From an uncultured Planctomycetota bacterium (GTDB lineage Bacteria > Planctomycetota > PUPC01), in contig CAZDHT010000001.1 of NCBI GenBank assembly GCA_964505325.1, positions 10,430 to 74,429 on the forward strand: 64,000 nucleotides of DNA. Reading direction: 5' to 3'. This document shows positions 3,303 through 25,055 of this stretch, one piece after another. Each line of letters begins with the position of its first letter. The stretch's first letter is position 1. The notes beneath the pieces were generated by a model. It had not been told where the DNA came from. It worked only from the letters and a program-made list of their open reading frames with translations, and searched no databases. The translations under genes were made by a program, and so were the position numbers.

Positions 3303-6300
3303 AGTTGCTTCCTCACCGAATCCAGCAGCGGCCCGCCAATTTCCACCGGGATCTCGCGCCCGGCGCGCAGGAACAGCAGCGCGGCCGCCTTGGGCGCCTT
3401 GCCGAACACCTCCCGCGCCGCCAGCGCGTACGCTCCGACCTGCAGCCGGTAGCTCTGCGCGTGTTCCGCCAAGTGCTGTTCGGACACGTCGTCCGTCTTG
3501 TAATCAACAATGGTCAGGCCCGTGCCGTCGTCAAAGGCCAGGTCGATCAGCCCTTCGAGGATCGTGCCGTCCACATTCACGGCGAAGGGAACTTCCCTGT
3601 ACACGGTACCCGCCTCCGCCGCCCGCTTCACGAGTTCCATCCCCAGAGCGGCTCTGGCCAGCTTCTCGACCATCGGCGCGTGGCTCGGGATGCCATTTCG
3701 CGTTGCTTCCTGTTCGGCAAGTTCCGAAAGCCCCGCCCCTGTCGCCAGGTCGGCCTGTTCGAGCACGGCGTGCACGGCCTTGCCGATCGATCTGCCAAGC
3801 TCGCCTTCCCCTGTGGGACGGCCGAAATCCTCTCTCTCGTCTTCGCCCAGCCTGGACGCCGTTTTCAGCCGCTTCTCCTCTGCGGCCCGTCGGATAAGCT
3901 GTTCGTGCGTCCGGCGCCACTTCTCGCGGCGTTCGCACAGCGTGGCACATTCCTTGGGCGGCTTGCGCTTCAGGTTGACCCGAAATGCCCGCCGGCCGTG
4001 CGGCTTCATGACGTCGGGATCTGCCGCCACCTCGGCCTCGACTTTCTTCGCCGCGGCGCCCGCCTCTTCGGCGAGGTCGGTCAGGTACTTCAGATACCCG
4101 CCCGGCTTGTCTGAGGCGGGGAAGTGCGGAATGATCAGCCGGTCGCGCGCCCGGGTGGCCGCGACGTAGAAGAGGCGCTGGGCTTCCGCCTCCTCCACGC
4201 GCTGCTCCCGCCCCTTGGCGTCCCGGAAGCCGAGAGTCATGATTCCCCGCGATTCCGCGCCGATCCGCACCTCGAAGCTGTCGCCGATCCGGTTCGGCAC
4301 AAAACGGATGCGCGACTTGCGCCCGGCCGACATGTCGGCCAGCACCACGATGGGGAACTCGAGCCCTTTTGCCTTATGGATGGTGATCAGCTTGACGAGG
4401 TCTTCGTCTTCCTCGGCCAGAGGCGACTCGGCCTCTTCGGCGACGGTCGTCATCTCCTGCAGCCAACGGACGAACCCGCCGAACGTGGCGCCCGGCGTTT
4501 GCTCGTAGGCACGTGCGGCGTCGATCACCTTGGCCAGGTTGGCGGCGCGCTGGGCGCCCCCAGGCTTCAAATAGAACAGCTCAAGGGCTTTCGTGTCGGA
4601 GAGCACCTGCTGCACGAGGTCGGACGTACTCCTGAGATTCCGGTCCCGATGCCACGCCGCCAGCAGGCGGAAGACACCGAGGATGTACGCATCGCCCTCT
4701 TCCGCTGCGCGGCTCAGATAGTCGAACCGGGCCTCTGCCGCGGCCGCCAACTCGTCGTCCGAGACGCCGAGCAGCGACGTCCGCAGCGCGGCGACCACGG
4801 CGACGGGGTCATACGGCCGTTCGATCGCGGCCAGCACGACGCGCAGCTCGGTCACTTCCTGCCTTGCGAAGAACTCCTTTCCGCTGACCGCGCGGAACGG
4901 TATCCCGGCCGAACTGAATGCGCTCTCGTAGAGGCCGAACGCTGTACGGGCGCGGAAAAGCACGGCGACGTCCCCGTACGTCACCGGCCGCATCGTGCCC
5001 GTTTCCTTGTCCAGCACGGTATCGCCGCGCCCGATCATCGCTTTGACCTCGTGGGCGACGGTGGCCGCTTCGGCAACCCGCGCCTCGTCGATCTTGTCAA
5101 ACGCCATCCCGTCGGGCGGCTTCAGAACCGTCGCCGCCGGCCCGGCATCAGTCCGCCACGCCTCGAGCGGGACGTACTCCGGCTGATAGGCCCCGTCATC
5201 CGGGCGCTGAATAAGCTCATCGAACACCGCATTGACCCAGTCCACACAGGCCGGGGAGCTGCGGAAGTTCTGGCGGACGTGGACGAGCTTGCCGGACCGC
5301 GCCACGACCTGCTTGGCCTCTTCGTAGGTCTCGATGTCGGCGCGGCGAAAGCGGTATATCGATTGCTTCGGGTCGCCCACGAAGAGCAGCTTGCCGGGGA
5401 CGATTTCGACGTCCCGCCAGTTCGATGCCTTGGCTCCGTTCTCGGCCAGGAAAAAGACTATCTCGGTCTGCAGCGGATCGGTGTCCTGGCATTCGTCGAT
5501 CAGGATCATCTTGAAGCGCTCCTGGAAGTACCGCCGCACCGCCTTGTCGCTGCGCAGCAGATCACGGGCCTTGAGGAGCAGATCGTCGAAATCCAGCACG
5601 GCGCGCTCGCGTTTTGCCGCTTCGTACCGGGCGACCATCTCGCGCAGGACGCCGGCCAATCGGCAGGCCACCACGTGTGCGGCGCTGTCGCGGAGAGGGT
5701 CGGCCAGGTCCTGCAGCTCATTGAGTCCGGCGATGCAGAAGTCGCGCGCCGGGCCCTTGCAGGCGTTCCGGGGCTTCTTGATGCGGAGGTCGAGGCCCGG
5801 CAGGCGGGCCATGTTCTCGTCCGGGCCGGCTTCCCGCATCTGGTCGGCGGCGTTCACGGCGGACAGGATTCTTGACGCGCAGGAGCAGCCCAGCGAGGTG
5901 CAGTGCTCCTGCATGTGCCGGTACAGCGCCCGGGCCTTCGGCACGAACGCATCCACCAGCTCGGCGAGCGGCGCGGCGAGGTCCAGCTCGTCGCCACCGG
6001 GTTGCAGGTCACGATTCGCCAGGAGCAGCCGGGCGCACTCTTTGAGGTCATCGGTGCTGAGCCCGGCGACGAACGCCGAGCGAAGGGGGCCGTGTTCGTC
6101 GTGGAGCTGCCGGGCGAGCCAGGCGCTCCAGACTTCGTCGAACAGCAGGGAGGATTGCAGGCTCTCGCTGATCGCGAAGCCCGGGTCGACCTTCGCCTCG
6201 ACCGGCCGTTCGAGCAGGAGTTCGGCGGCGAACGAGTGGATCGTCGAGGCGTGGGCGGCGTCCAGCGCGGCGAGCGCGTCCGACAACCGGTCCGCCACGA

Positions 6301-9701: not shown

Positions 9702-10829
9702 TCACATGGGCTCGAGGCGCAGCGCGGCGGCGACGATGTCGAACGCCGCGCGGGGGCGCGCTGCGTTGAGAGCCGCTTTTCTCATTCGGGCGAGGTGCTC
9801 AGGCTCGGCGAGCAGACGGCCGATGACCTGGCGAAGCTTGGCGGGGGTGCTGGCGGGCAGCGCCGCACCGCGCCCTACCAGAAAGGCGGAATTCCTCTCC
9901 TCCTGCCCGGGGATCGGCAGGGTCAATACCATCGGGAGCCCAACGGCGAGGCACTCGGTGCTCGACATGCCGCCGGGTTTTGTCACGATGAGGTCCGACG
10001 CCGCCATCAGCTTCTCCATGTAATCCACGAACCCGTACGTGACCAGCTTCGCCGGCGGCGGGACGGCCAGCTCGTCGAGCCTCCGCTTCAACCTCTCGTT
10101 GTGCCCGGCGACGGCAAGGATCTGGACCGCCCCGCACTCGGCGATGGCGGCGACGGTCTTTTGCACCCCGCCCTTCCCGCCGCCCCCGCTGAGGGCCAGC
10201 ACCGTCGGCAGGCCGGGCTCCAGCCCCAGCTCCGCGCGGACTTGGGCGCGGTCAACCGGCTCGGAGAAGGCGGCGTCGATCGGGATCCCGCAGGTGGTGA
10301 CCTGGTCGGGAGGCGCCCCCTTGCTGATGAACAGGCCGCGGAGGTAGTCGGACGCGACGAAATAATGGTCCGTCCCGGGGTTGATCCATATTCGATGCGC
10401 GTCGTAGTCCGTGACCACCACCCCAACGGGGACATCGAGTTGGCCCGTTCGCCGCATCCAGGCGAGGATCTCACCGGGGAGGAAGTGCGTGCAGACGATG
10501 TGGGTGGGCTGTTTCTGCCGGACCAGGTCGATGAACTTGCCGGCGTTGAGCCGGTCGAGCGCGCACATGGCCCGGCGTTCGAAACCGTCGATCCGCTTCT
10601 TGTCCCATCGGTGGTACAGATAGCGCCAGTACCAGGGGAGGGCGCTGATCACCGAGAAGTATGAGTGGAGGTAGAGCTTGCCGAAGACTGCTCTGGTGTA
10701 CTGGATGACGTCGACCGTTTCGGCAGAGCCCTCGTACCCGGCAAGGTCGAAGGCGCTCTTCAGGGCGGCGGCGGCGCGGGCGTGACCCGCCCCGGCGGAC
10801 GCGTATGCGATGAGCAGCTTGTACGCCAT
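9702..10829 (-). CDS. GT28 family glycosyltransferase (MGDG synthase / UgtP-like diacylglycerol glycosyltransferase)
   Basis: Start moved to internal Met (MAYKLLIAYASAGAGHARAA), the canonical MGDG-synthase N-terminus; C-terminal Glyco_trans_28-like region. The upstream part of the listed ORF is not credible. Confidence 0.6.
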   Translation of the reverse strand: MAYKLLIAYASAGAGHARAAAALKSAFDLAGYEGSAETVDVIQYTRAVFGKLYLHSYFSVISALPWYWRYLYHRWDKKRIDGFERRAMCALDRLNAGKFIDLVRQKQPTHIVCTHFLPGEILAWMRRTGQLDVPVGVVVTDYDAHRIWINPGTDHYFVASDYLRGLFISKGAPPDQVTTCGIPIDAAFSEPVDRAQVRAELGLEPGLPTVLALSGGGGKGGVQKTVAAIAECGAVQILAVAGHNERLKRRLDELAVPPPAKLVTYGFVDYMEKLMAASDLIVTKPGGMSSTECLAVGLPMVLTLPIPGQEERNSAFLVGRGAALPASTPAKLRQVIGRLLAEPEHLARMRKAALNAARPRAAFDIVAAALRLEPM

Positions 10830-11030
10830 GTGCCGTCTGATCCGCAAAACGTGGATTATATCCGCCTGCGCTCGCGCCGCAAGTGCTGGGATGCCGCCGA
10901 GTCGATACCCTGAACGCGGGGCATTTGCCGGGACGAGCTGTACCCAGGCAGCATGACGGCGGGGCGGGAAGGGTGTGGATTGGGCGCGGGCAAAACGGCC
11001 GATCCCGACCGCGGCCGGGCCCACGAACGT

Positions 11031-11489: not shown

Positions 11490-12095
11490 ATGATCCGTAT
11501 CCGTTTCCGGCACTGGCGCCGATGGCTGTACCGGCGGGTGGTAAAGCTTCGGGGCTCGCCGCACGCCATCGCGCGCGGGATGGCGCTGGGCGTGATCTTC
11601 GGGAACCTGATGCCGCCGGGCCTCCAGTTGTTCACCGGCATCCCGGTCACCTTGCTGCTGGGCGGAAACGTCCTGGCAATGATCGCGGGCACTTGCGTGT
11701 CCAATCCCTTCACGTACGTCGCCCTCTATTTGTTCAATTGCCGGGTGGGCGAGGTCTTTTTGAACGGGCTCGGGGCCGAGATCAGCCTCGGGGCCGACCT
11801 GGAGGCCGCCCTCCGATCGGTGCGTGAGATGCGGATTGGCGAATTCTTCGCCGAGAGACTCCGCCCCCTGCTGTCCTGCTGGATCGCAGGCGGCCTGCTC
11901 GTCGGGCTGGCCGAATCGGTCCCCGCCTACTACCTGATGCACATCATCGTGATCCAGGTCCGCCGGCTGCAGAGCTTCGCCCGGGCGCGCCGCGCCGCCC
12001 GTCACGAGGCCCGAGCCGCCGAGGAGAAGCCTCGCAAGACAGGGGAACCTGACGAAGAAGCCCCGGACGAACAGCCGCCCCCGCCGCCGGAATAA
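11490..12095 (+). CDS. DUF2062-family membrane protein
   Basis: RRWLYRRVVKLRGSPHAIARGMALGVIFGNLMP...LLLGGN motif pattern of DUF2062. Confidence 0.55.
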   Translation: MIRIRFRHWRRWLYRRVVKLRGSPHAIARGMALGVIFGNLMPPGLQLFTGIPVTLLLGGNVLAMIAGTCVSNPFTYVALYLFNCRVGEVFLNGLGAEISLGADLEAALRSVREMRIGEFFAERLRPLLSCWIAGGLLVGLAESVPAYYLMHIIVIQVRRLQSFARARRAARHEARAAEEKPRKTGEPDEEAPDEQPPPPPE

Positions 12096-12096
12096 G

Positions 12097-12185
12097 GGGC
12101 TCTATCAAGACCCTGGTGGGGCAGGCATTCTTGCCTGCCACGGGGCAGACAGGAATGTCCGCCCCACTGTTTTTTTGGAGCTCGC
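12097..12185 (+). repeat. intergenic repeat element, copy A (perfect palindrome GGCAGGCA-ttct-TGCCTGCC plus a second GC hairpin and T-run)
   Basis: ~85-90% identical to the reverse complement of 36308-36392; shares modules with 24940-25055; sits between convergent genes. Confidence 0.7.
12142..12177 (+). terminator. rho-independent terminator-like hairpin + TTTTTTT (part of repeat copy A)
   Basis: GGGGCAGACA-gga-TGTCCGCCCC stem followed by ACTGTTTTTTT, directly after the stop of the DUF2062 gene. Confidence 0.5.
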
Positions 12186-12826: not shown

Positions 12827-12964
12827 GCCACGACTCCCGATGGGGTTCCGTGCCGTGGCATTATACCGCGCCCCGTGCGCCGGGTCAAAGGCAGGGTCAT
12901 TCAATTCTCGTCTGGAAACGGCCGAGGTCAATGCCCTCGGCTGCAAATGACCCGGATTCCACCT

Positions 12965-12986
12965 CTTCACTTGGCTGAAGTGTTAC
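12965..12986. repeat. 22-nt hairpin motif CTTCA-cttggc-TGAAG-TGTTAC, site 1
   Basis: 20-nt exact match (reverse complement) at 25794-25813 and a 20/22 match at 23498-23519. Confidence 0.6.
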
Positions 12987-13093
12987 GATCACGCGTTGTC
13001 CGCCGAAGCCTTGCCGGAGGTGGAAGGACACGAAGAAGACTCCTCACTCCTTCGTACTACAAGCTGTCAGAAGTTTGTTTTTTTGGACACTTT

Positions 13094-14632
13094 TCATGCG
13101 GCCGTGTCTTTCAAGAGTGCCCAATCGGTTTGACGGAAGATAAGGGCGGTGGCCATCAGCAGGTGTCCGTGGGGTGCGATGCGATAGAGGTTTCGATGTG
13201 GGACCTTGCGGATGAGTTGGTGTGCTCGCAAGAGCCGAAGGTGTCTGGCGACTTGTCCACGCCGGCGGGCGGCTTCTTTTGGGGTGTTCGCCTGGGTGGG
13301 GAAGAGCAGGCGTTGGATGTGGCGGCTGGTGAAGCCGTGGAGGAGATGCTCACCGTGAAGGATCGCTTCGAAAAGACGGCTCTCCTCGGGTGCAATGGGC
13401 CGCAACGGCCGATACGGCTTCCGGCCTTTGCGTACCCGCCGGCTGACGGCATCGAGAAGCTGGTGCGACGGGGTCGGATCTCCGACAACGGCGAGCGCCT
13501 CCAGATAGCGCCCATTGGCGTCCCGGCAGATGGTGATGCGCCGGGCCAGGTCCCGCAGTCCCTTGCTCATCTTTCCCCAGACCAGTCGGCCGTCTTTGCG
13601 GCGCAACGCCTGGAATCGGCGCGGGTTGTTGATCGTCGTTTCGATGCGGAGGATGATGCCCTCCTTGTCGTACATCTTGAGCGAGTTCTCGTTGACCTGA
13701 TGCTTGAGACGGACTCCCTCCACTCGGTGGCGCTTGGAGGTGACGACGCGGTTGGGCAGCATGCCTCGTACGCGGTCGGTCAGGAAGCGCAGCACGTCGC
13801 GGCTGGAGAAGTGTCGGAGGGCGTGTCCCCACAGAGACGGATAAACCTTCTGAAGGGCCTTGCGGCTCTTGAAGAGCACGTCGGTTGCATACTCGCTCTC
13901 ATAGACGGTCCAGTAGTAGCCGAACCGCCCGACGAATCCCAATTCCTTGAGCAGCGGGTTCACTCGGCGGGCCGGCGGGTTGAGAAACCTCGCCCAGTTC
14001 CGAATCTCCAAGCGGCGCAGAATCGCCTGGGCCCGCGGCAGGTCTCCGATGTCGAACAGGGCGTTGTGAATCTGCTCGAAGGAGATGCTCTCGCGCTTCA
14101 ACTGCTCGGCGAGGTAGAGCCGCCCGTTCACGTAGACCTGAACGTCGAACGGAACCCACGACTGAATCCGCAGATGCATCAGGCCGAACTCCCAATCCAG
14201 CCAGTAGAAGTAAAAGAAGCGGCACTTCCGCATCCGGTACGTCACCTCCAGGTGACCCGAATCCCGGTTCCGGCGCAGGTCGGCCGTCACGCACGGCTCG
14301 ACACACGCCAGCACGCAAATCAGCCCCGCCGTGACGCCATCGCGTTCCGCGATCTGCCGGGCGTATTCATCCTTCCGAACACCGGACGACTGAAGGTAGA
14401 TGTACGGCCGGTTCGACTTCGTCGCGACCTCCTTCGCCCGTGCATCCAACGCTCGCGTGCATTGCTCCGCGAACGAACCGAAGTCCTTGAGCAAAATCCC
14501 ATGAGCCGTTAGGAACCGATCCAGCCCATGCGAGTAGTTGATCGAGCGCAGCACGCCTCGGAACATCAGCCGGTCGAACCCCTCCAGAACACACTCGATG
14601 ACTTCCGTGTGCCGTGTGATAAAATCGGTCAT
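13094..14632 (-). CDS. hypothetical protein (512 aa), unidentified family; possible mobile-element or accessory gene
   Basis: Long ORF with ordinary amino-acid composition, unlike the antisense ORFs around it. No P-loop, DDE (Y-2-R-3-E-6-K), YxDD or recombinase motifs seen. Basic, possibly winged-helix C-terminus (RHLRLLRAHQLIRKVPHRNLYRI). Flanked by 123-nt and 232-nt non-coding spacers; GC visibly lower than its neighbours. Confidence 0.55.
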   Translation of the reverse strand: MTDFITRHTEVIECVLEGFDRLMFRGVLRSINYSHGLDRFLTAHGILLKDFGSFAEQCTRALDARAKEVATKSNRPYIYLQSSGVRKDEYARQIAERDGVTAGLICVLACVEPCVTADLRRNRDSGHLEVTYRMRKCRFFYFYWLDWEFGLMHLRIQSWVPFDVQVYVNGRLYLAEQLKRESISFEQIHNALFDIGDLPRAQAILRRLEIRNWARFLNPPARRVNPLLKELGFVGRFGYYWTVYESEYATDVLFKSRKALQKVYPSLWGHALRHFSSRDVLRFLTDRVRGMLPNRVVTSKRHRVEGVRLKHQVNENSLKMYDKEGIILRIETTINNPRRFQALRRKDGRLVWGKMSKGLRDLARRITICRDANGRYLEALAVVGDPTPSHQLLDAVSRRVRKGRKPYRPLRPIAPEESRLFEAILHGEHLLHGFTSRHIQRLLFPTQANTPKEAARRRGQVARHLRLLRAHQLIRKVPHRNLYRIAPHGHLLMATALIFRQTDWALLKDTAA

Positions 14633-14864
14633 AGGACGCCCCTCGCAAATGGGTTGCTTGATGAGCCATTCCCCTTATGCAGAGAGCGTCCTTCCTTTTC
14701 CAATTTGGTTGCGGCTGAGGGGCGAAGCCCCGAAGCCGCGTCAGGCTCTTCGTGGCGAGAATTCCCGTTACCAAACCCGCCGCCCCGCCACTAAGGGGGT
14801 GAACGTACTCGAGTGGTTCCGCCGGGCGGTCAATGAGAACCGTTTACTCAAGGAGGAAGAAGAG

Positions 14865-15419
14865 ATGAAACGGTATTGGATGTTTGCCGCAGTGACGTTG
14901 GCATTGGCGCTGGCCGCGGGGCCGGCTTTGGCGAAGGACGGACCGGGCGGGAAGGGCCCTGGCCGGCGCGGCCGCCAGATGCGGCGGCGCGGGCTCGGCA
15001 TGCGCCGCGGGCCGGGCATGCGCCGCGGGCCCCTGATGCTCCGCCTGGGCGAGAAGCTCGAGCTGGGCGAGCAACAGAAGAAGAAGATCGCCGAGATCCG
15101 CGAGGCCGCCCGCGAGAAGATCAAGGCCGCCGACTCCCCCGAGAAGCGGCACGAGATCATCAAGCAGGTTCGCGAGGACATCAAGAAGGTCCTCACCGCC
15201 GAGCAGATCAAGAAGCAGGAAGAGGTCCGCAAGGAGCACGGCCTCGGCCTGACCGAGGAGCAGCGCGAGAAGATGGCGGAGATCCGCAAGAAGATGCACG
15301 AGGAGATGAAGAAGGTCCTCACCGAAGAGCAGCTCAAGAAGCAGGATCAACTCCGCCGGCGCTTTCGCGGCCGGCGGCACCACTTCGGGCCGCCTCTCGG
15401 CCCGCGGCCCGAGAAGTAG
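14865..15419 (+). CDS. Spy/CpxP-like periplasmic LTxxQ-repeat protein
   Basis: Signal peptide, then repeated LTAEQ / LTEEQ motifs with K/E-rich helices; AGGAGG RBS 8 nt upstream of ATG 14865. Confidence 0.6.
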   Translation: MKRYWMFAAVTLALALAAGPALAKDGPGGKGPGRRGRQMRRRGLGMRRGPGMRRGPLMLRLGEKLELGEQQKKKIAEIREAAREKIKAADSPEKRHEIIKQVREDIKKVLTAEQIKKQEEVRKEHGLGLTEEQREKMAEIRKKMHEEMKKVLTEEQLKKQDQLRRRFRGRRHHFGPPLGPRPEK

Positions 15420-15580
15420 GGCGTCGATACGCCCGCGCGTGCAGCTCAGGCGCTCGGATCCGTCCGGGCGTCTGAGCCGTGGTGCGCCGGCACGGAATCG
15501 GGGTCGTAATCTGACCGAAGTTCGATTATGATTGGCATGACGCGACAGGGGCGGATAGGCAGGGCAGGTAAGACCACGGC

Positions 15581-16141
15581 GTGGATGAAACGGACTGGAC
15601 CGACATCAGGGCTTCGCTGGCCGGCGACGACGACGCGTTTGCGCGGCTGGTCGAGCGCTACGAGCCGCAGGTTGCACGCCTGATGTGGCGGTTCAGCCGC
15701 GACCGCGTTCAGTGCGAGGAGTTGATACAGGACGTGTTTGTCGAGGCGTACCTGAGCTTGAAGAGCTACCGCGGCGACGCGCCGTTCCTGCATTGGCTCC
15801 GCCGCATCGGCACCCGGGTCGGATACCGCTTCTGGAAGAAGCGGGCGAAGGACAAGGGCCGCGTACCCTTGAGCGAGGTCCAGGGGCTTGCCGGCAAGCC
15901 GGAAGAGACCGACCCGGCCCTCGCCGGGGAACTGCTCGACGCCCTGCTGGCACAATTGCGACCGGCCGACCGCCTGGTCCTGACGCTCGAGTACCTGGAA
16001 GGATGCTCGATGAAGGAGATCGCCGAGCGGACCGGCTGGAACGTCGCGGCGGTCAAGATGCGGGCGCACCGGGCCCGCGGGAAGCTGAAGAAGATCGCGG
16101 AACGCGACCGTCTTCTGGAGACGCTGCCATGGACGAACTGA
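15581..16141 (+). CDS. ECF-type RNA polymerase sigma factor (sigma-70 regions 2 and 4)
   Basis: ELIQDVFVEAY...FLHWLRRIGTRV (region 2) and LEYLEGCSMKEIAERTGWNVAAVKMRAHRARGKL (region 4 HTH); GTG start. Confidence 0.75.
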   Translation: MDETDWTDIRASLAGDDDAFARLVERYEPQVARLMWRFSRDRVQCEELIQDVFVEAYLSLKSYRGDAPFLHWLRRIGTRVGYRFWKKRAKDKGRVPLSEVQGLAGKPEETDPALAGELLDALLAQLRPADRLVLTLEYLEGCSMKEIAERTGWNVAAVKMRAHRARGKLKKIAERDRLLETLPWTN

Positions 16142-16386
16142 AGGCGCTTGAGGAGTTGGCTCGACAGGCCCGCAAGGAAGAGCCGCCGGTGCGCGGCGTG
16201 ACCGCCCGCGTGCTGGCGGAGATCCGGTCGCGGCGCCGGTTCCGCGTCTGGCCGCTGTCCGTCTTTGCCGCCGCCTCCGCCGTCGCCGCCTCGGTGCTCC
16301 TGGCCGTCGCCGTGCATTACTGGACGAGCGCACCCGACCCACTGACGGAGCTATGCGCCTCTTTCGAGGTGACCGAGCTATGGTAG
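16129..16386 (+). CDS. putative anti-sigma factor (small single-pass membrane protein)
   Basis: ATG overlaps the sigma-factor stop; 85 aa with one TM helix (VFAAASAVAASVLLAVAV). Assigned by position only. Confidence 0.35.
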   Translation: MDELKALEELARQARKEEPPVRGVTARVLAEIRSRRRFRVWPLSVFAAASAVAASVLLAVAVHYWTSAPDPLTELCASFEVTELW

Positions 16387-17081
16387 ACACGCACGACACG
16401 TCCGAAACTGTCCGAGCCGAAGCGCCGCCCCGCCGCGGGCGGACCGGCCTCGTGCTGCTCCTGGGCGCCGTGATCCTGCTCAGCGGCATCGCCCTCGGGA
16501 CGGGCGGCGCCATGCTGTGGCTCAAGCCGCCCGAACCGCCCCCCCCCGGCCCGGGGCGTCACTCTGCGGAGGAGATCGCGGTGTGCGTCGCGGAGCAATG
16601 CGGCCTCGACGAAGAGCAAACCGCGACCATCCGCGAGGTCATGGCCCGCCGGCTCGAGCGCCTCCGCGCCATCCACGACGACACGGCGGAGCGCATCCTG
16701 GCCGAGCACGACTCCCTGCGCCAGGAGATGAAAGCCGCGCTGACCGCCGAGCAGTTCGAGCGATGGGACGAGCACTTCCGAGGGCTCCAGAAGCGCTCCC
16801 CCCTGGTCCGCCGCGGCCGGCGCGGCCGGTCACGCTGGCTCCGAGATCCGAAAGAGATGTTCCGCCGCCTGGACCTCAACAAGGACGGCAAGCTGACGCA
16901 GGGCGAGGTGCCCGAGTTGACCTGGCATCGGCTGTCGCGCGCCGACACCGACGGCGACGGCGCCGTCACCGAAGAGGAGCTGAGGGCGTTCCGCGGCGCC
17001 AAGCCCGGACCTCCCGGCCCGCATTCGGGGGGTCGGGGCCCGCGCGACCGCCAGAGCAAACCGGGCAGGAGAGAACCATGA
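16380..17081 (+). CDS. membrane-anchored protein with two EF-hand-like Ca-binding loops
   Basis: TM helix, then DLNKDGKLTQGEV and DTDGDGAVTEEEL EF-hand loops and an LTAEQ motif. Confidence 0.5.
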   Translation: MVDTHDTSETVRAEAPPRRGRTGLVLLLGAVILLSGIALGTGGAMLWLKPPEPPPPGPGRHSAEEIAVCVAEQCGLDEEQTATIREVMARRLERLRAIHDDTAERILAEHDSLRQEMKAALTAEQFERWDEHFRGLQKRSPLVRRGRRGRSRWLRDPKEMFRRLDLNKDGKLTQGEVPELTWHRLSRADTDGDGAVTEEELRAFRGAKPGPPGPHSGGRGPRDRQSKPGRREP

Positions 17082-21360: not shown

Positions 21361-21435
21361 GCCAGCGTAGCTCAACGGCAGAGCTTCCGCCTTGTAAGCG
21401 GAAGGTTGTGAGTTCGAATCTCACCGCTGGCTCCA
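21361..21435 (+). tRNA. tRNA-Thr (anticodon TGT)
   Basis: GCCAGCG acceptor stem, GCTCAACGG D-arm, anticodon loop CTTGTAA, GTTCGAATC T-arm, CCA encoded. Confidence 0.85.
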
Positions 21436-21570
21436 GCCTTCGCCGGCTAAGGCCAGCCAAGGTTAAGAGTTGTCTTTTGACAAGGTAGTCGCCCCGGAGG
21501 GCTGCGTGCAGTTCGCGGCGCGCCCGCCGTTTGCCGGCGGCGAAGTTGAGCGCGGGCGGAGCCGAGAGAC

Positions 21571-21655
<85 letters not shown>

Positions 21656-21679
21656 TTTAGCGTCTGGCGGGTCAGGGAC

Positions 21680-21753
21680 GCGGGCGTAGCTCAACGGTAG
21701 AGCCCCAGCCTTCCAAGCTGGCTGTGTGGGTTCGATTCCCATCGCCCGCTCCA
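21680..21753 (+). tRNA. tRNA-Gly (anticodon TCC)
   Basis: GCGGGCG acceptor, anticodon loop CTTCCAA, CCA encoded. Confidence 0.85.
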
Positions 21754-21765
21754 GGCAACCGGCAG

Positions 21766-21837
<72 letters not shown>

Positions 21838-24498: not shown

Positions 24499-24924
24499 AT
24501 GGCGAAAGAAGTCGTCGAGGTCTTCAGGATGCAGGTGGTCGCGGGCCAGGCAACGCCCGCCCCCCCGGTCGGCGTCGCTCTGGGCCCAAGGAACGTCAAC
24601 CCGGGCGCGTTCTGCAAGGAGTTCAACGACCGCACGCGCGCCCTCCAGGGCACCACCGTCACCGTCGAGATGACGATCTACCGGGACCGGTCGTTCTCCT
24701 TCGAGGTGCTCGGCCCCCCGGCGTCGGCCCTGCTGAAGAAGGCGGCCAATATCGTCAAGGGGTCCAGCGTGCCGAACAAAGAGAAGGTCGCGCAGGTGAC
24801 CCGTTCCCAGATCGAGGCGATCGCCAAGGAGAAGATGAAGGATCTCAACACCAGGGATCTGGCGGCGGCGGTCGGGCAGTTGGAAGGCACCGCTCGCAGC
24901 ATGGGTATCGATATCGTCGACTAG
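24499..24924 (+). CDS. rplK: 50S ribosomal protein L11
   Basis: MAKEVVEVFRMQVVAGQATPAPPVGVALGPRNVNPGAFCKEFN... Confidence 0.95.
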   Translation: MAKEVVEVFRMQVVAGQATPAPPVGVALGPRNVNPGAFCKEFNDRTRALQGTTVTVEMTIYRDRSFSFEVLGPPASALLKKAANIVKGSSVPNKEKVAQVTRSQIEAIAKEKMKDLNTRDLAAAVGQLEGTARSMGIDIVD

Positions 24925-24939
24925 GGCCCCGAACATGAC

Positions 24940-25055
24940 GCCGGTGGGGCAGGCATTCCTGCCTGCCCGACGGCCGAGAGGAAGGGACTCCGCCGAAGCG
25001 GCTATGTCCCTCTCGCGAAGGCGGATGTCCGCCCTACCCTTTTGTTGGAGCGCCT
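24940..25055 (+). repeat. intergenic repeat element, copy C (palindrome GGCAGGCA-ttcc-TGCCTGCC, a ~45-nt insert, then the GATGTCCGCCC...TTTTGTTGGAGC module)
   Basis: Shares the 5' and 3' modules of copy A (12097-12185); lies between rplK and rplA. Confidence 0.65.

Follow-up and report, generated by a model that had tools for sequence, protein, structure and literature searches.

The window analysed here, a stretch of 64,000 nucleotides from an uncultured Planctomycetota bacterium (contig CAZDHT010000001.1), contains on its minus strand, at 13094-14632, an open reading frame (ORF) with an ATG start that encodes a protein of 512 amino acids and is flanked by 123 nt (12971-13093) and 232 nt (14633-14864) of non-coding DNA. 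A first-pass annotation, made from the sequence alone, had recognized the ORF as a real gene between such spacers, had noted a depressed GC content and the lack of any recognizable protein family, and had suggested a mobile or accessory gene; later analysis agrees with it on each of these points. Both protein motifs quoted at that time, YFYWLDWEFGLMHLRIQSW and RHLRLLRAHQLIRKVPHRNLYRIAPHGH, are present in the ORF. The GC content of the unit described below is 0.610 as compared with 0.655 for the whole window, which places it in the lowest 2.4% of 1,709-nt windows, and the GC content at third codon positions is 0.79 in the ORF versus 0.82-0.91 in the adjacent genes. The 512-residue protein had no match at E<=1 in Pfam, in NCBIfam, including its models for recognized insertion sequence families, or in PADLOC with its anti-phage defence models, and PDB sequences yielded nothing meaningful. 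When 90 family members were searched along with the protein in Pfam, NCBIfam, PADLOC, PHROGs and PDB sequences, only the C-terminal winged helix was recognized. Based on the observations described in the following, it is likely that positions 13056-14745 represent an intact copy of a bacterial insertion sequence not classified before and that the 512-residue protein is its transposase, a tyrosine enzyme resembling the Rep_trans nucleases.

Metagenome contigs were scanned for both flanks of the window copy lying close together. In contig Ga0114922_10021597 (locus L085), window positions 12963-13055 (96% identical) and 14748-15305 (92% identical) are contiguous, without the intervening 1.69 kb, so that 13055 is joined to 14748 and the discrete unit can be compared with an uninterrupted site in a relative. 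This is the empty site of the very copy present in the window, a comparison that the annotation had proposed. In the orientation of the element, the empty site reads GAATTCTCG CCACGAAGG CC^ACGAAGGAG CGAGGAGTC and the occupied window GAATTCTCG CCACGAAGAG CC[TGACGCGGC...GCTTGTAGT]ACGAAGGAG TGAGGAGTC, in which the outer brackets enclose the element. A scan of one genome per species revealed 577 confirmed loci in reference genomes. Among the metagenome-assembled genomes (MAGs) obtained from long reads, Acidobacteriota MFD05580.bin.1.50 contains at least nine copies and two others contain four each. The copies within a genome are 97-100% identical over a common core, mostly of 1,680-1,700 nt (range ~1.68-1.79 kb), beyond which the similarity ends abruptly; they occupy unrelated positions and contain a single ORF, that of their own putative mobility protein. 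Gene neighbourhoods are unrelated among the window, L001 (an Anaerolineae MAG with an 82%-identical element) and L003 (with a 50%-identical homolog), and the DNA similarity of the window to the 82%-identical element (L001/L002) is restricted to 13054-14740. Nearly all of the best 120 homologs are located on contigs of 1.7-2.5 kb, the signature expected of repeats collapsed in assembly; free circles as the source of the short contigs were dismissed, as none of nine contigs examined had a terminal overlap. Within the window there is one copy, and neither further copies nor solo ends were found there. The search for syntenic single-copy orthologs, which the annotation had named as evidence against mobility, revealed no synteny and multi-copy genomes. 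It was concluded from the empty site, the multi-copy genomes and the absence of synteny that this is a new transposable unit rather than an ordinary gene. The ORF is not the cargo of a small island, as had been supposed, but by itself makes up the entire autonomous 1.69-kb element.

The family comprises 5,813 clusters at 50% identity (E<=1e-3), nearly all of which contain proteins of ~515 residues. Its members occur in more than ten bacterial phyla, among them Acidobacteriota, Planctomycetota, Chloroflexota, Gemmatimonadota, Verrucomicrobiota, Myxococcota, Calditrichota, Desulfobacterota, Spirochaetota and Elusimicrobiota; searches of 2.9 million viral contigs and of PHROGs retrieved none. In the source databases all are named hypothetical protein except for one plasmid homolog, designated an ArsR regulator. 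The latter is a full-length distant homolog (29.5% identity, 97% coverage) on plasmid NZ_CP014580.1 of Paraburkholderia phytofirmans (252814-254271), and its annotation as 'ArsR family transcriptional regulator' is probably an error driven by the C-terminal winged helix. Weaker homologs are located on plasmids of Rhodococcus, Burkholderia, Caballeronia and Mycobacterium. L001 contains a second member of the family (9763-10872, minus strand), which is 42% identical, truncated at the N-terminus (it starts at residue ~149) and arranged tail-to-tail at a distance of 227 nt from the 82%-identical element of this Anaerolineae genome. The pair suggests a shared target preference or nested decay.

No convincing terminal inverted repeats were found flanking the ORF; such repeats are typical of most DDE transposase families. 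Upstream of the gene, the left-end motif AGCGCGGC-loop-GCCGC-AACCAAA was identified in 45 of 59 diverse loci whose proteins share ~40-50% identity. The DNA motif is conserved more than the protein and is therefore typical of an enzyme recognition site. The stem pairs of the left-end hairpin are kept in 24-26 of 26 sequences, an invariance that leaves no covariation. A literature search for the end motif returned chance primer matches only. The 5' untranslated region (UTR) that follows is too variable to be aligned, and MAFFT combined with RNAalifold recovered just the invariant left-end hairpin; a UTR helix was therefore tested for each sequence by duplex computation. In the window, the duplex of GGACGCTCTC with GAGGGGCGTCC-ATG has a computed energy of -25.5 kcal/mol (z=-3.3), and in 31 of 44 family UTRs pairing to the Shine-Dalgarno sequence and start codon occurs at z<-2. 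The arms differ by lineage (GGCGUUGC/GCAACGCC, GGCCUGUC/GACAGGCC, GGUAUUCCCC/GGGGAAUACC), and to judge from the sequences these are compensatory changes. We read the predicted helix as a device of translational occlusion. Insertion sequences commonly control their transposase gene in this way, and here the helix would limit transposase expression and shield it from read-through.

Additional structures were observed near the ends of other copies. In the flanks of L063 (right), L077 (left) and L078 (right), solo left-end-like remnants, composed of the hairpin and AACC(C)AAAA, are found no more than ~100 nt from intact copies. The L063 remnant directly follows the right end (RE) and the target motif (RE-ACGAAG-CGGCACGGCCGCAACCAAAAAC) and resembles a head-to-tail junction, and the L077 and L078 remnants, which have the short tail TTATTTACCGCAG in common, may represent non-autonomous derivatives of miniature size. 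In the nine-copy Acidobacteriota genome (L027-L035, L052), a 10-nt segment with the consensus GAGCGGCGTA (locus ~3896-3906) is situated at the left junction, between the flank and the invariant left end; it varies among copies that are otherwise 99.9% identical and is unlike the right-hand motif, GCAGAG.

The elements are bracketed by a short motif of one type, with the approximate consensus CCAC[AG][GA]A[GT]. The pair in the window is CACGAAGAG on the left and ACGAAGGAG on the right; other flank motifs are ACAGAGTTC on both sides in L004, CACGGGGA in L012, CGCAGATT in L016 and CACAGATTAC in L017 and L033. Left and right motifs match each other better within than between elements (mean longest common substring 6.2 versus 5.0 nt, Mann-Whitney p=9e-7; up to 10/10), and the match is exact over at least 7 nt in 17 of 40 elements. 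Both flank motifs vary among Isosphaeraceae copies that are otherwise 99.5% identical, which indicates that the motif is derived from the target and is not borne by the element; a model in which the element carries its own right-hand motif was rejected for these copies for the same reason. The flanks often contain extra tandem or inverted copies of the motif. In 16 of 44 loci, among them the window together with its empty site, the motif abutting the right end makes up the 5' arm of a hairpin, compared with 3.8% in shuffled sequences and 1 of 44 in an internal control. The empty site L085 already possesses two tandem copies of the motif, and the element was inserted between CC and ACGAAGG of the second; no new target duplication is seen in this one resolved pair of empty and occupied sites. 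The 1-nt difference in the first motif copy between L085 and the window may reflect strain divergence. Because the motif is already doubled in the empty site, is associated with hairpins and is not newly duplicated, we favour insertion that is site-specific, at the foot of hairpins or arrays bearing the motif, over a classical staggered-cut duplication.

Arrays of the target motif, with units of 9-11 nt, occur in tandem near insertions in unrelated phyla (right flank of L068; L008, L009, L016, L025, L038, L077, L078); the L068 array has a unit of ~20 nt, GGCGTGGGATC[GA]C[AG]GAG. In L052 (~5590-5780), a tandem array of a 56-nt unit resembling the hairpins of repetitive extragenic palindromes (REPs), ...GGAGTCAGAG TCATTTTTC..GAAAAATTACTCTGCGG..., lies directly downstream of an element copy. 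Its unoccupied units reveal the appearance of the target, and paralogous units flank L029 and L029b. L076 and L078 reside on one contig in opposite orientation, and their flank motifs appear swapped (ACAGATG on the left of L076 matches ACAGATGA on the right of L078), which is what an inversion of the 38 kb between them, through recombination of the two copies, would produce.

Table 1. Features of the element and its target site in the window.
Feature	Position	Strand	Remarks
Mobile element core, 1,690 nt: left end, 5' UTR, single ORF, right end	13056..14745	-	Delimited by L001/L002 similarity limits, L085 junction, end motifs and copy size
ORF, putative transposase, 512 aa, ATG start	13094..14632	-	TBP-like double-repeat saddle (~aa 1-385) and winged-helix region (~aa 386-512), as predicted
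Coding region of the TBP-fold putative catalytic core, aa 1-385	13478..14632	-	Carries D20, E112, Y141/Y143, E247-x-A249-x-D251, K319-x-Y321-x-K323, R329-x-E331
Coding region of the C-terminal winged-helix (MarR/PadR-like) DNA-binding region	13097..13477	-	
Left-end terminus CCTGACGCGGC	14735..14745	-	First base common to four copies of an Isosphaeraceae genome, in which the terminus is CCTGACGCGGCC
Left-end hairpin GCGGCTTCGGGGC-TTC-GCCCCTCAGCCGC	14711..14739	-	Outer GCGGC/GCCGC stem invariant in the family; window copy has a 2x2 internal mismatch
GCCGCAACCAAA: 3' arm of the hairpin and conserved single-stranded AACCAAA	14704..14715	-	Candidate nuclease recognition/nick region; unique in the window
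Upstream arm GGACGCTCTC of the 5'-UTR helix	14682..14691	-	Predicted to pair with ribosome-binding site and start codon
Downstream arm GAGGGGCGTCCTATG of the 5'-UTR helix	14630..14644	-	Shine-Dalgarno sequence and ATG predicted to be sequestered in the helix
Right-end conserved A-rich motif GTCCAAAAAAACAAAC	13073..13088	-	CC-AAAAAAA-CAAG type, after the stop codon
Right-end terminus GCTTGTAGT	13056..13064	-	Family consensus YTTGYARY
Target motif copy in the left flank, CACGAAGAG	14746..14754	-	Present in the empty site as CCACGAAGG
Target motif copy abutting the right end, ACGAAGGAG	13047..13055	-	5' arm of the target hairpin
Inverted target motif copy TTCTTCGTG	13029..13037	-	3' arm of the target hairpin; also in the empty site

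Structural information on the protein was obtained with AlphaFold2, which was supplied with an alignment of 90 members sharing as little as 28% identity; the conservation counts given below refer to these 90 sequences. The model (predicted local distance difference test, pLDDT, 93.7; predicted template modelling score, pTM, 0.84) shows a saddle like that of the TATA-binding protein (TBP) combined with winged-helix domains. The predicted order of strands, a long N-terminal strand followed by four strands, a long sixth strand and four more, makes up a two-module saddle, which in the model agrees with the ten-stranded antiparallel TBP-like saddle of two five-strand modules that defines Rep_trans. 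Foldseek comparison with viral models retrieved TBPs of giant viruses at E ~5e-4, with A0A2N9QVX7 among the matches at E=0.01; nothing significant was found in the PDB for the whole chain. No domain or fold corresponding to DDE, DEDD, serine- or tyrosine-recombinase transposases and no RNase-H-like fold was detected in the 512-residue protein. The C-terminal winged helices and a putative catalytic core unlike that of known transposases support the option, raised in the annotation, of a novel transposase family or DNA-binding protein.

The Rep_trans motifs were read from a reconstructed sequence of RepC of pT181. D46 on strand 1 of Rep_trans (SFD46AMTIVG in RepC) corresponds to D20 of the family (G-F-D20-R-L-x-F-R-G26, model strand E12-27), which is present in 89 of the 90 members and provides the Asp of motif N' on the first central strand. 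Strand 6, with R140-x-D142-x-A144-x-D146 (LD142LAFD146 in RepC), has its counterpart in S-E247-Y-A249-T-D251 on model strand E240-254 (E247 in 90/90; A249 as 75 Ala and 15 Ser; D251 in 89/90). R189-x-Y191-x-K193 of strand 10 (RIY191NK in RepC) is represented by K319-M-Y321-D-K323 on E316-323, with K319 in 89, Y321 in 90 and K323 in 87 of 90 sequences, in agreement with motif III, an R-x-Y-x-K on a beta-strand. On the next strand, motif IV (W/L-x-R-x-E; R212-x-E214 of strand 11, WRVE214 in RepC) is found as I/L-L-R329-x-E331 (L-R329-I-E331, model strand E327-334), both charged residues of which occur in 90/90. In the model, all four active-site elements of Rep_trans thus lie on topologically equivalent strands, and their i/i+2 spacing places them on one face. 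The only confident stretch of the hhalign alignment with RepC pairs D20 with D46. An HUH-like H-x-R-x-Q sequence at 153-157 was discarded as a candidate since H153 is not conserved (His in 64/90).

Several observations call for caution in assigning the protein to the Rep_trans-like enzymes. In motif I (R-x-D-x-A-x-D, strand 6), the pattern of acidic residues and Ala is kept, but Glu replaces Asp and the position of Arg is taken by Gln or Glu. Motif II (T/S-x-Y/E-x-G, strand 9) has no such pattern in the family, in which the equivalent strand reads G306-V-R308-L-K310. The hhalign comparisons with RepC alone or with its family were not significant (E=0.25-0.32), none of the 90 members matches PF02486 or PF22477 at E<=10, and no member matches PF25227; a homolog search seeded with RepC contained only near-identical staphylococcal Reps among the matches listed and so provided no diverse profile. 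The first half of the saddle contains a second cluster of invariant residues (E112, Y141, Y143, R155, N169, N190), which could form a second active site or a DNA-binding surface. The missing sequence link to Rep_trans would agree with a new insertion sequence that encodes its own transposase, but one that cuts both strands in a staggered fashion and generates 8-10-bp duplications at a strongly preferred target sequence, with the saddle acting above all as a platform that binds DNA. Direct repeats of 7-10 nt that flank 17 of 40 elements point in the same direction, as do the swapped flank motifs of the two inverted copies on one contig, which are those of inversion-shuffled duplications. Arguing against such a cutter is the sole resolved empty site, in which the motif is already present twice, with the element inside the second copy and no new duplication. 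Moreover, the repeats are often imperfect between 99.5%-identical copies and are accompanied by further tandem motif copies in the flanks, terminal inverted repeats are lacking, neither an RNase-H-like nor a DEDD, serine- or tyrosine-recombinase fold or domain was detected, and the invariant constellation of D/E/E, Y and K/R matches Rep_trans strand for strand. A staggered cutter is therefore considered unlikely.

Rep_trans and Rep-Arvir proteins are initiators or relaxases that act on hairpin origins, the left-end hairpin is origin-like and distant homologs reside on large plasmids, all of which would suit a very small replicon of the rolling-circle type, made up of an origin and a rep gene like that of a plasmid or satellite, that integrates into chromosomes and whose protein is mainly a replication initiator. 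This is improbable given that no terminal overlap was seen in any of the nine short contigs, that the copies are dispersed in chromosomes, from four to at least nine per genome, with sharp ends, and that none occurs in 2.9 million viral contigs or PHROGs; moreover, the 1.69 kb carry no other function. The distinction from transposition is not fully exclusive, as replicative rolling-circle transposition would blur the line between the two. Even less probable is a DNA-binding regulator, composed of the TBP-like and winged-helix domains, that is carried as cargo of a unit moved in trans by another recombinase or by recombination between REP-like repeats. The winged helix-turn-helix (wHTH) at the C-terminus is indeed the sole region recognizable by sequence, the Paraburkholderia plasmid homolog is annotated as ArsR, and the insertion sites are REP-like hairpins or arrays. 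However, one ORF with conserved ends recurs in more than ten phyla without a linked second gene, the 97-100% identity of copies within a genome indicates recent self-propagation, and nine residues of catalytic type are invariant across ~28% identity on the concave face, and the acidic triad that they include does not suit a surface for DNA binding. An ordinary chromosomal gene, present once and set in slightly AT-rich intergenic DNA, for which the one copy in the window might be cited, has next to no probability left; it is refuted by the empty site, the multi-copy genomes and the absent synteny.

For the insertion sequence with a Rep_trans-like tyrosine transposase, the following sequence of events is proposed, for which the initiators of the Rep_trans and Rep-Arvir families as well as HUH transposons (IS200/IS605, IS91) serve as models. 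From this analogy we infer the tyrosine and metal chemistry, the single-stranded intermediates and the exact cut positions, and with them the function of the protein as a transposase. The winged helices would bind the ends of the element, and the enzyme would recognize end structures on one strand, namely the GCGGC...GCCGC hairpin with AACCAAA at the left end and the A-rich motif with YTTGYARY at the right end. Y321 would nick one strand at each end, which would result in a 5'-phosphotyrosine intermediate, with a metal site presumably formed by D20, E247/D251 and E331 and with the assistance of K319, K323 and R329. The strand would then be rejoined into a target presented as single-stranded or hairpin DNA beside CCAC[AG][GA]A[GT] (CCACGAAGG in the present case), usually at a hairpin's 5' foot or in small tandem arrays of the motif. 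Rep_trans initiators process ~10-12 nt past the nick site (PMC4797284), a distance whose resemblance in length to the 8-10-nt flank repeats invites speculation.

Known insertion sequences employ only a handful of enzyme types. To our knowledge, nucleases of the Rep_trans type, with their TBP fold, have been described solely in two roles, the initiation of rolling-circle replication in plasmids and phages and the initiation of conjugative transfer. In the HUH superfamily, which parallels Rep_trans, recruitment for transposition has long been established. No Rep_trans-type or TBP-fold transposase or insertion sequence was found in the literature, the coverage of which excluded most subscription journals. 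On balance we lean towards the view that the family constitutes a new mechanistic class of prokaryotic transposase beside the DDE, DEDD, HUH, serine, tyrosine-recombinase and Cas1-type enzymes, in which a TBP-fold, Rep_trans-like tyrosine nuclease would transfer a minimal element, in the form of single-stranded DNA, into the 5' feet of hairpins. If a Rep_trans-like active site does function in transposition, the asymmetry between Rep_trans and HUH would be closed and a class of transposases added, the deep evolutionary link between bacterial and archaeal TBP-fold nucleases would be extended, the 'hypothetical proteins' of this family, which number in the thousands (no fewer than 5,800 clusters at 50% identity), would become annotatable mobile elements, and many fragmented 1.7-kb contigs in soil and sediment metagenomes would be explained. 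Lineage-specific target motifs (CAGAG, CGAAG, CGGAT, CACGGGG and others) track the element sequence, so that targeting might be reprogrammable. The compact element, with a single protein, end sequences of ~110 nt and 40 nt and a short, lineage-varying, hairpin-associated target motif, is a possible tool for DNA insertion. The tandem and inverted motif arrays at insertion sites could be footprints of the element, and in that case it would generate REP-like repeats.

Adjoining the element on the plus strand are genes for a protein rich in Lys and Glu that has a signal-peptide-like N-terminus and contains internal 126-nt repeats (14865-15419), an ECF-type (extracytoplasmic function) sigma factor (15581-16141) and a proline-rich EF-hand-like protein (16353-17081). 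The element is located 120 nt upstream of this cluster (14865-17081) and may affect its expression. The 22-nt hairpin and repeat copy A, placed by the annotation near the gene, are in fact a palindrome at ~12095-12167, ~900 nt away and beyond the neighbouring pseudopilin gene, and were rejected as parts of the element. This palindrome, with a GGGGCAGGCATTCTTGCCTGCC core, occurs twice in the window (12095-12155, extending to ~12167, and 24923-24983) and probably represents a host repeat, either REP-like or a terminator. Around the gene, Rfam produced only a spurious weak match to mir-3913, on the unrelated palindrome at ~12.1 kb. Three tRNA-like direct repeats (GCGTAGCTCAACGGCAGAGC...) at 21365-21804 suggest, from their sequence, a putative tRNA gene cluster.

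Among the systems to which the element can be compared, the TBP itself differs in that it is a non-catalytic transcription factor of archaea and eukaryotes, without the invariant tyrosine and acidic cluster, and is not located on mobile DNA. Two nuclease families with a TBP-like fold have been described, the bacterial Rep_trans (RepC/RepD of pT181, RstA of CTXphi, MOB_T relaxases) and the archaeal Rep-Arvir (DUF7845), which are related to each other at the structural level only (PMC13107129, NAR 2026). With Rep_trans (PF02486: RepC/RepD, RepSTK1, RstA and the MOB_T relaxases NicK, Tn916 Orf20 and RelSt3) the family shares, as far as sequence and model allow, the TBP-like pseudo-duplicated beta-saddle, a putative tyrosine nucleophile on a beta-strand in an R/K-x-Y-x-K context, and three carboxylates on separate strands (D on strand 1, D/E-x-A-x-D on strand 6, R-x-E on strand 11). 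An appended DNA-binding domain, hairpin-containing DNA substrates and the location on mobile DNA are further common traits. In the structures of RepD and RepSTK1 the active site is on the concave face, and the metal of Rep_trans is held by D46, D142 and E214 (PMC4797284). By contrast, sequence homology is undetectable, the family protein is ~200 residues longer, with large helical inserts and two wHTH domains, and it has no evident counterpart of motif II or of the Arg in motif I. The family is encoded on chromosomal elements of 1.69 kb, which are multi-copy and differ at their two ends, instead of on plasmids, phages or conjugative elements. Transposition, the role that it would have, is undescribed for Rep_trans; a 2017 review of rolling-circle initiators assigned transposition to HUH enzymes only and replication and conjugation to Rep_trans (PMC5714925).

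Rep-Arvir (DUF7845, PF25227), exemplified by RepSNJ2 of the archaeal virus SNJ2, likewise has a TBP-fold catalytic domain that is detectable by structure only. In RepSNJ2 the catalytic domain is followed by a MarR-like wHTH, with a second wHTH in some relatives, and the essential residues E25, D207, Y283 (in KHYYM) and E303 occur in the same order as in the family (PMC13107129). The domain architecture thus agrees with that predicted here, the essential Tyr follows a Lys (KHYYM as compared with K-M-Y-D-K), and an N-terminal acidic residue and a downstream Glu are common to both. RepSNJ2 and the family protein also match the same giant-virus TBP, A0A2N9QVX7, in Foldseek (PMC13107129 for RepSNJ2). 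They differ in that Rep-Arvir is reported to be exclusive to archaea, where it initiates the replication of viruses and plasmids, whereas the family is bacterial, chromosomal and insertion sequence-like and has no match to PF25227.

The enzyme fold is unrelated to that of the HUH transposons: no HUH motif and no Y1_Tnp or Y2_Tnp domain (Pfam, NCBIfam) was found, the putative catalytic Tyr lies on a beta-strand and not on a helix, the protein is far larger than TnpA(Y1), and the flanking direct-repeat-like motif is foreign to those families. In their organization, however, IS200/IS605 and IS91/ISCR/Helitron elements resemble the element described here. They are single-gene elements without terminal inverted repeats, have dissimilar ends with subterminal hairpins and insert beside a short specific sequence, as is the case here, and the association with REP-like hairpins is shared with the REP-associated tyrosine transposases (RAYTs). 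A single-strand nick-and-join chemistry with tyrosine and metal, as proposed for the family, would be a further common feature. The nearest working analogues would then be the 'peel-and-paste' transposition of IS200/IS605 and the rolling-circle transposition of IS91, carried out by an enzyme of unrelated fold.

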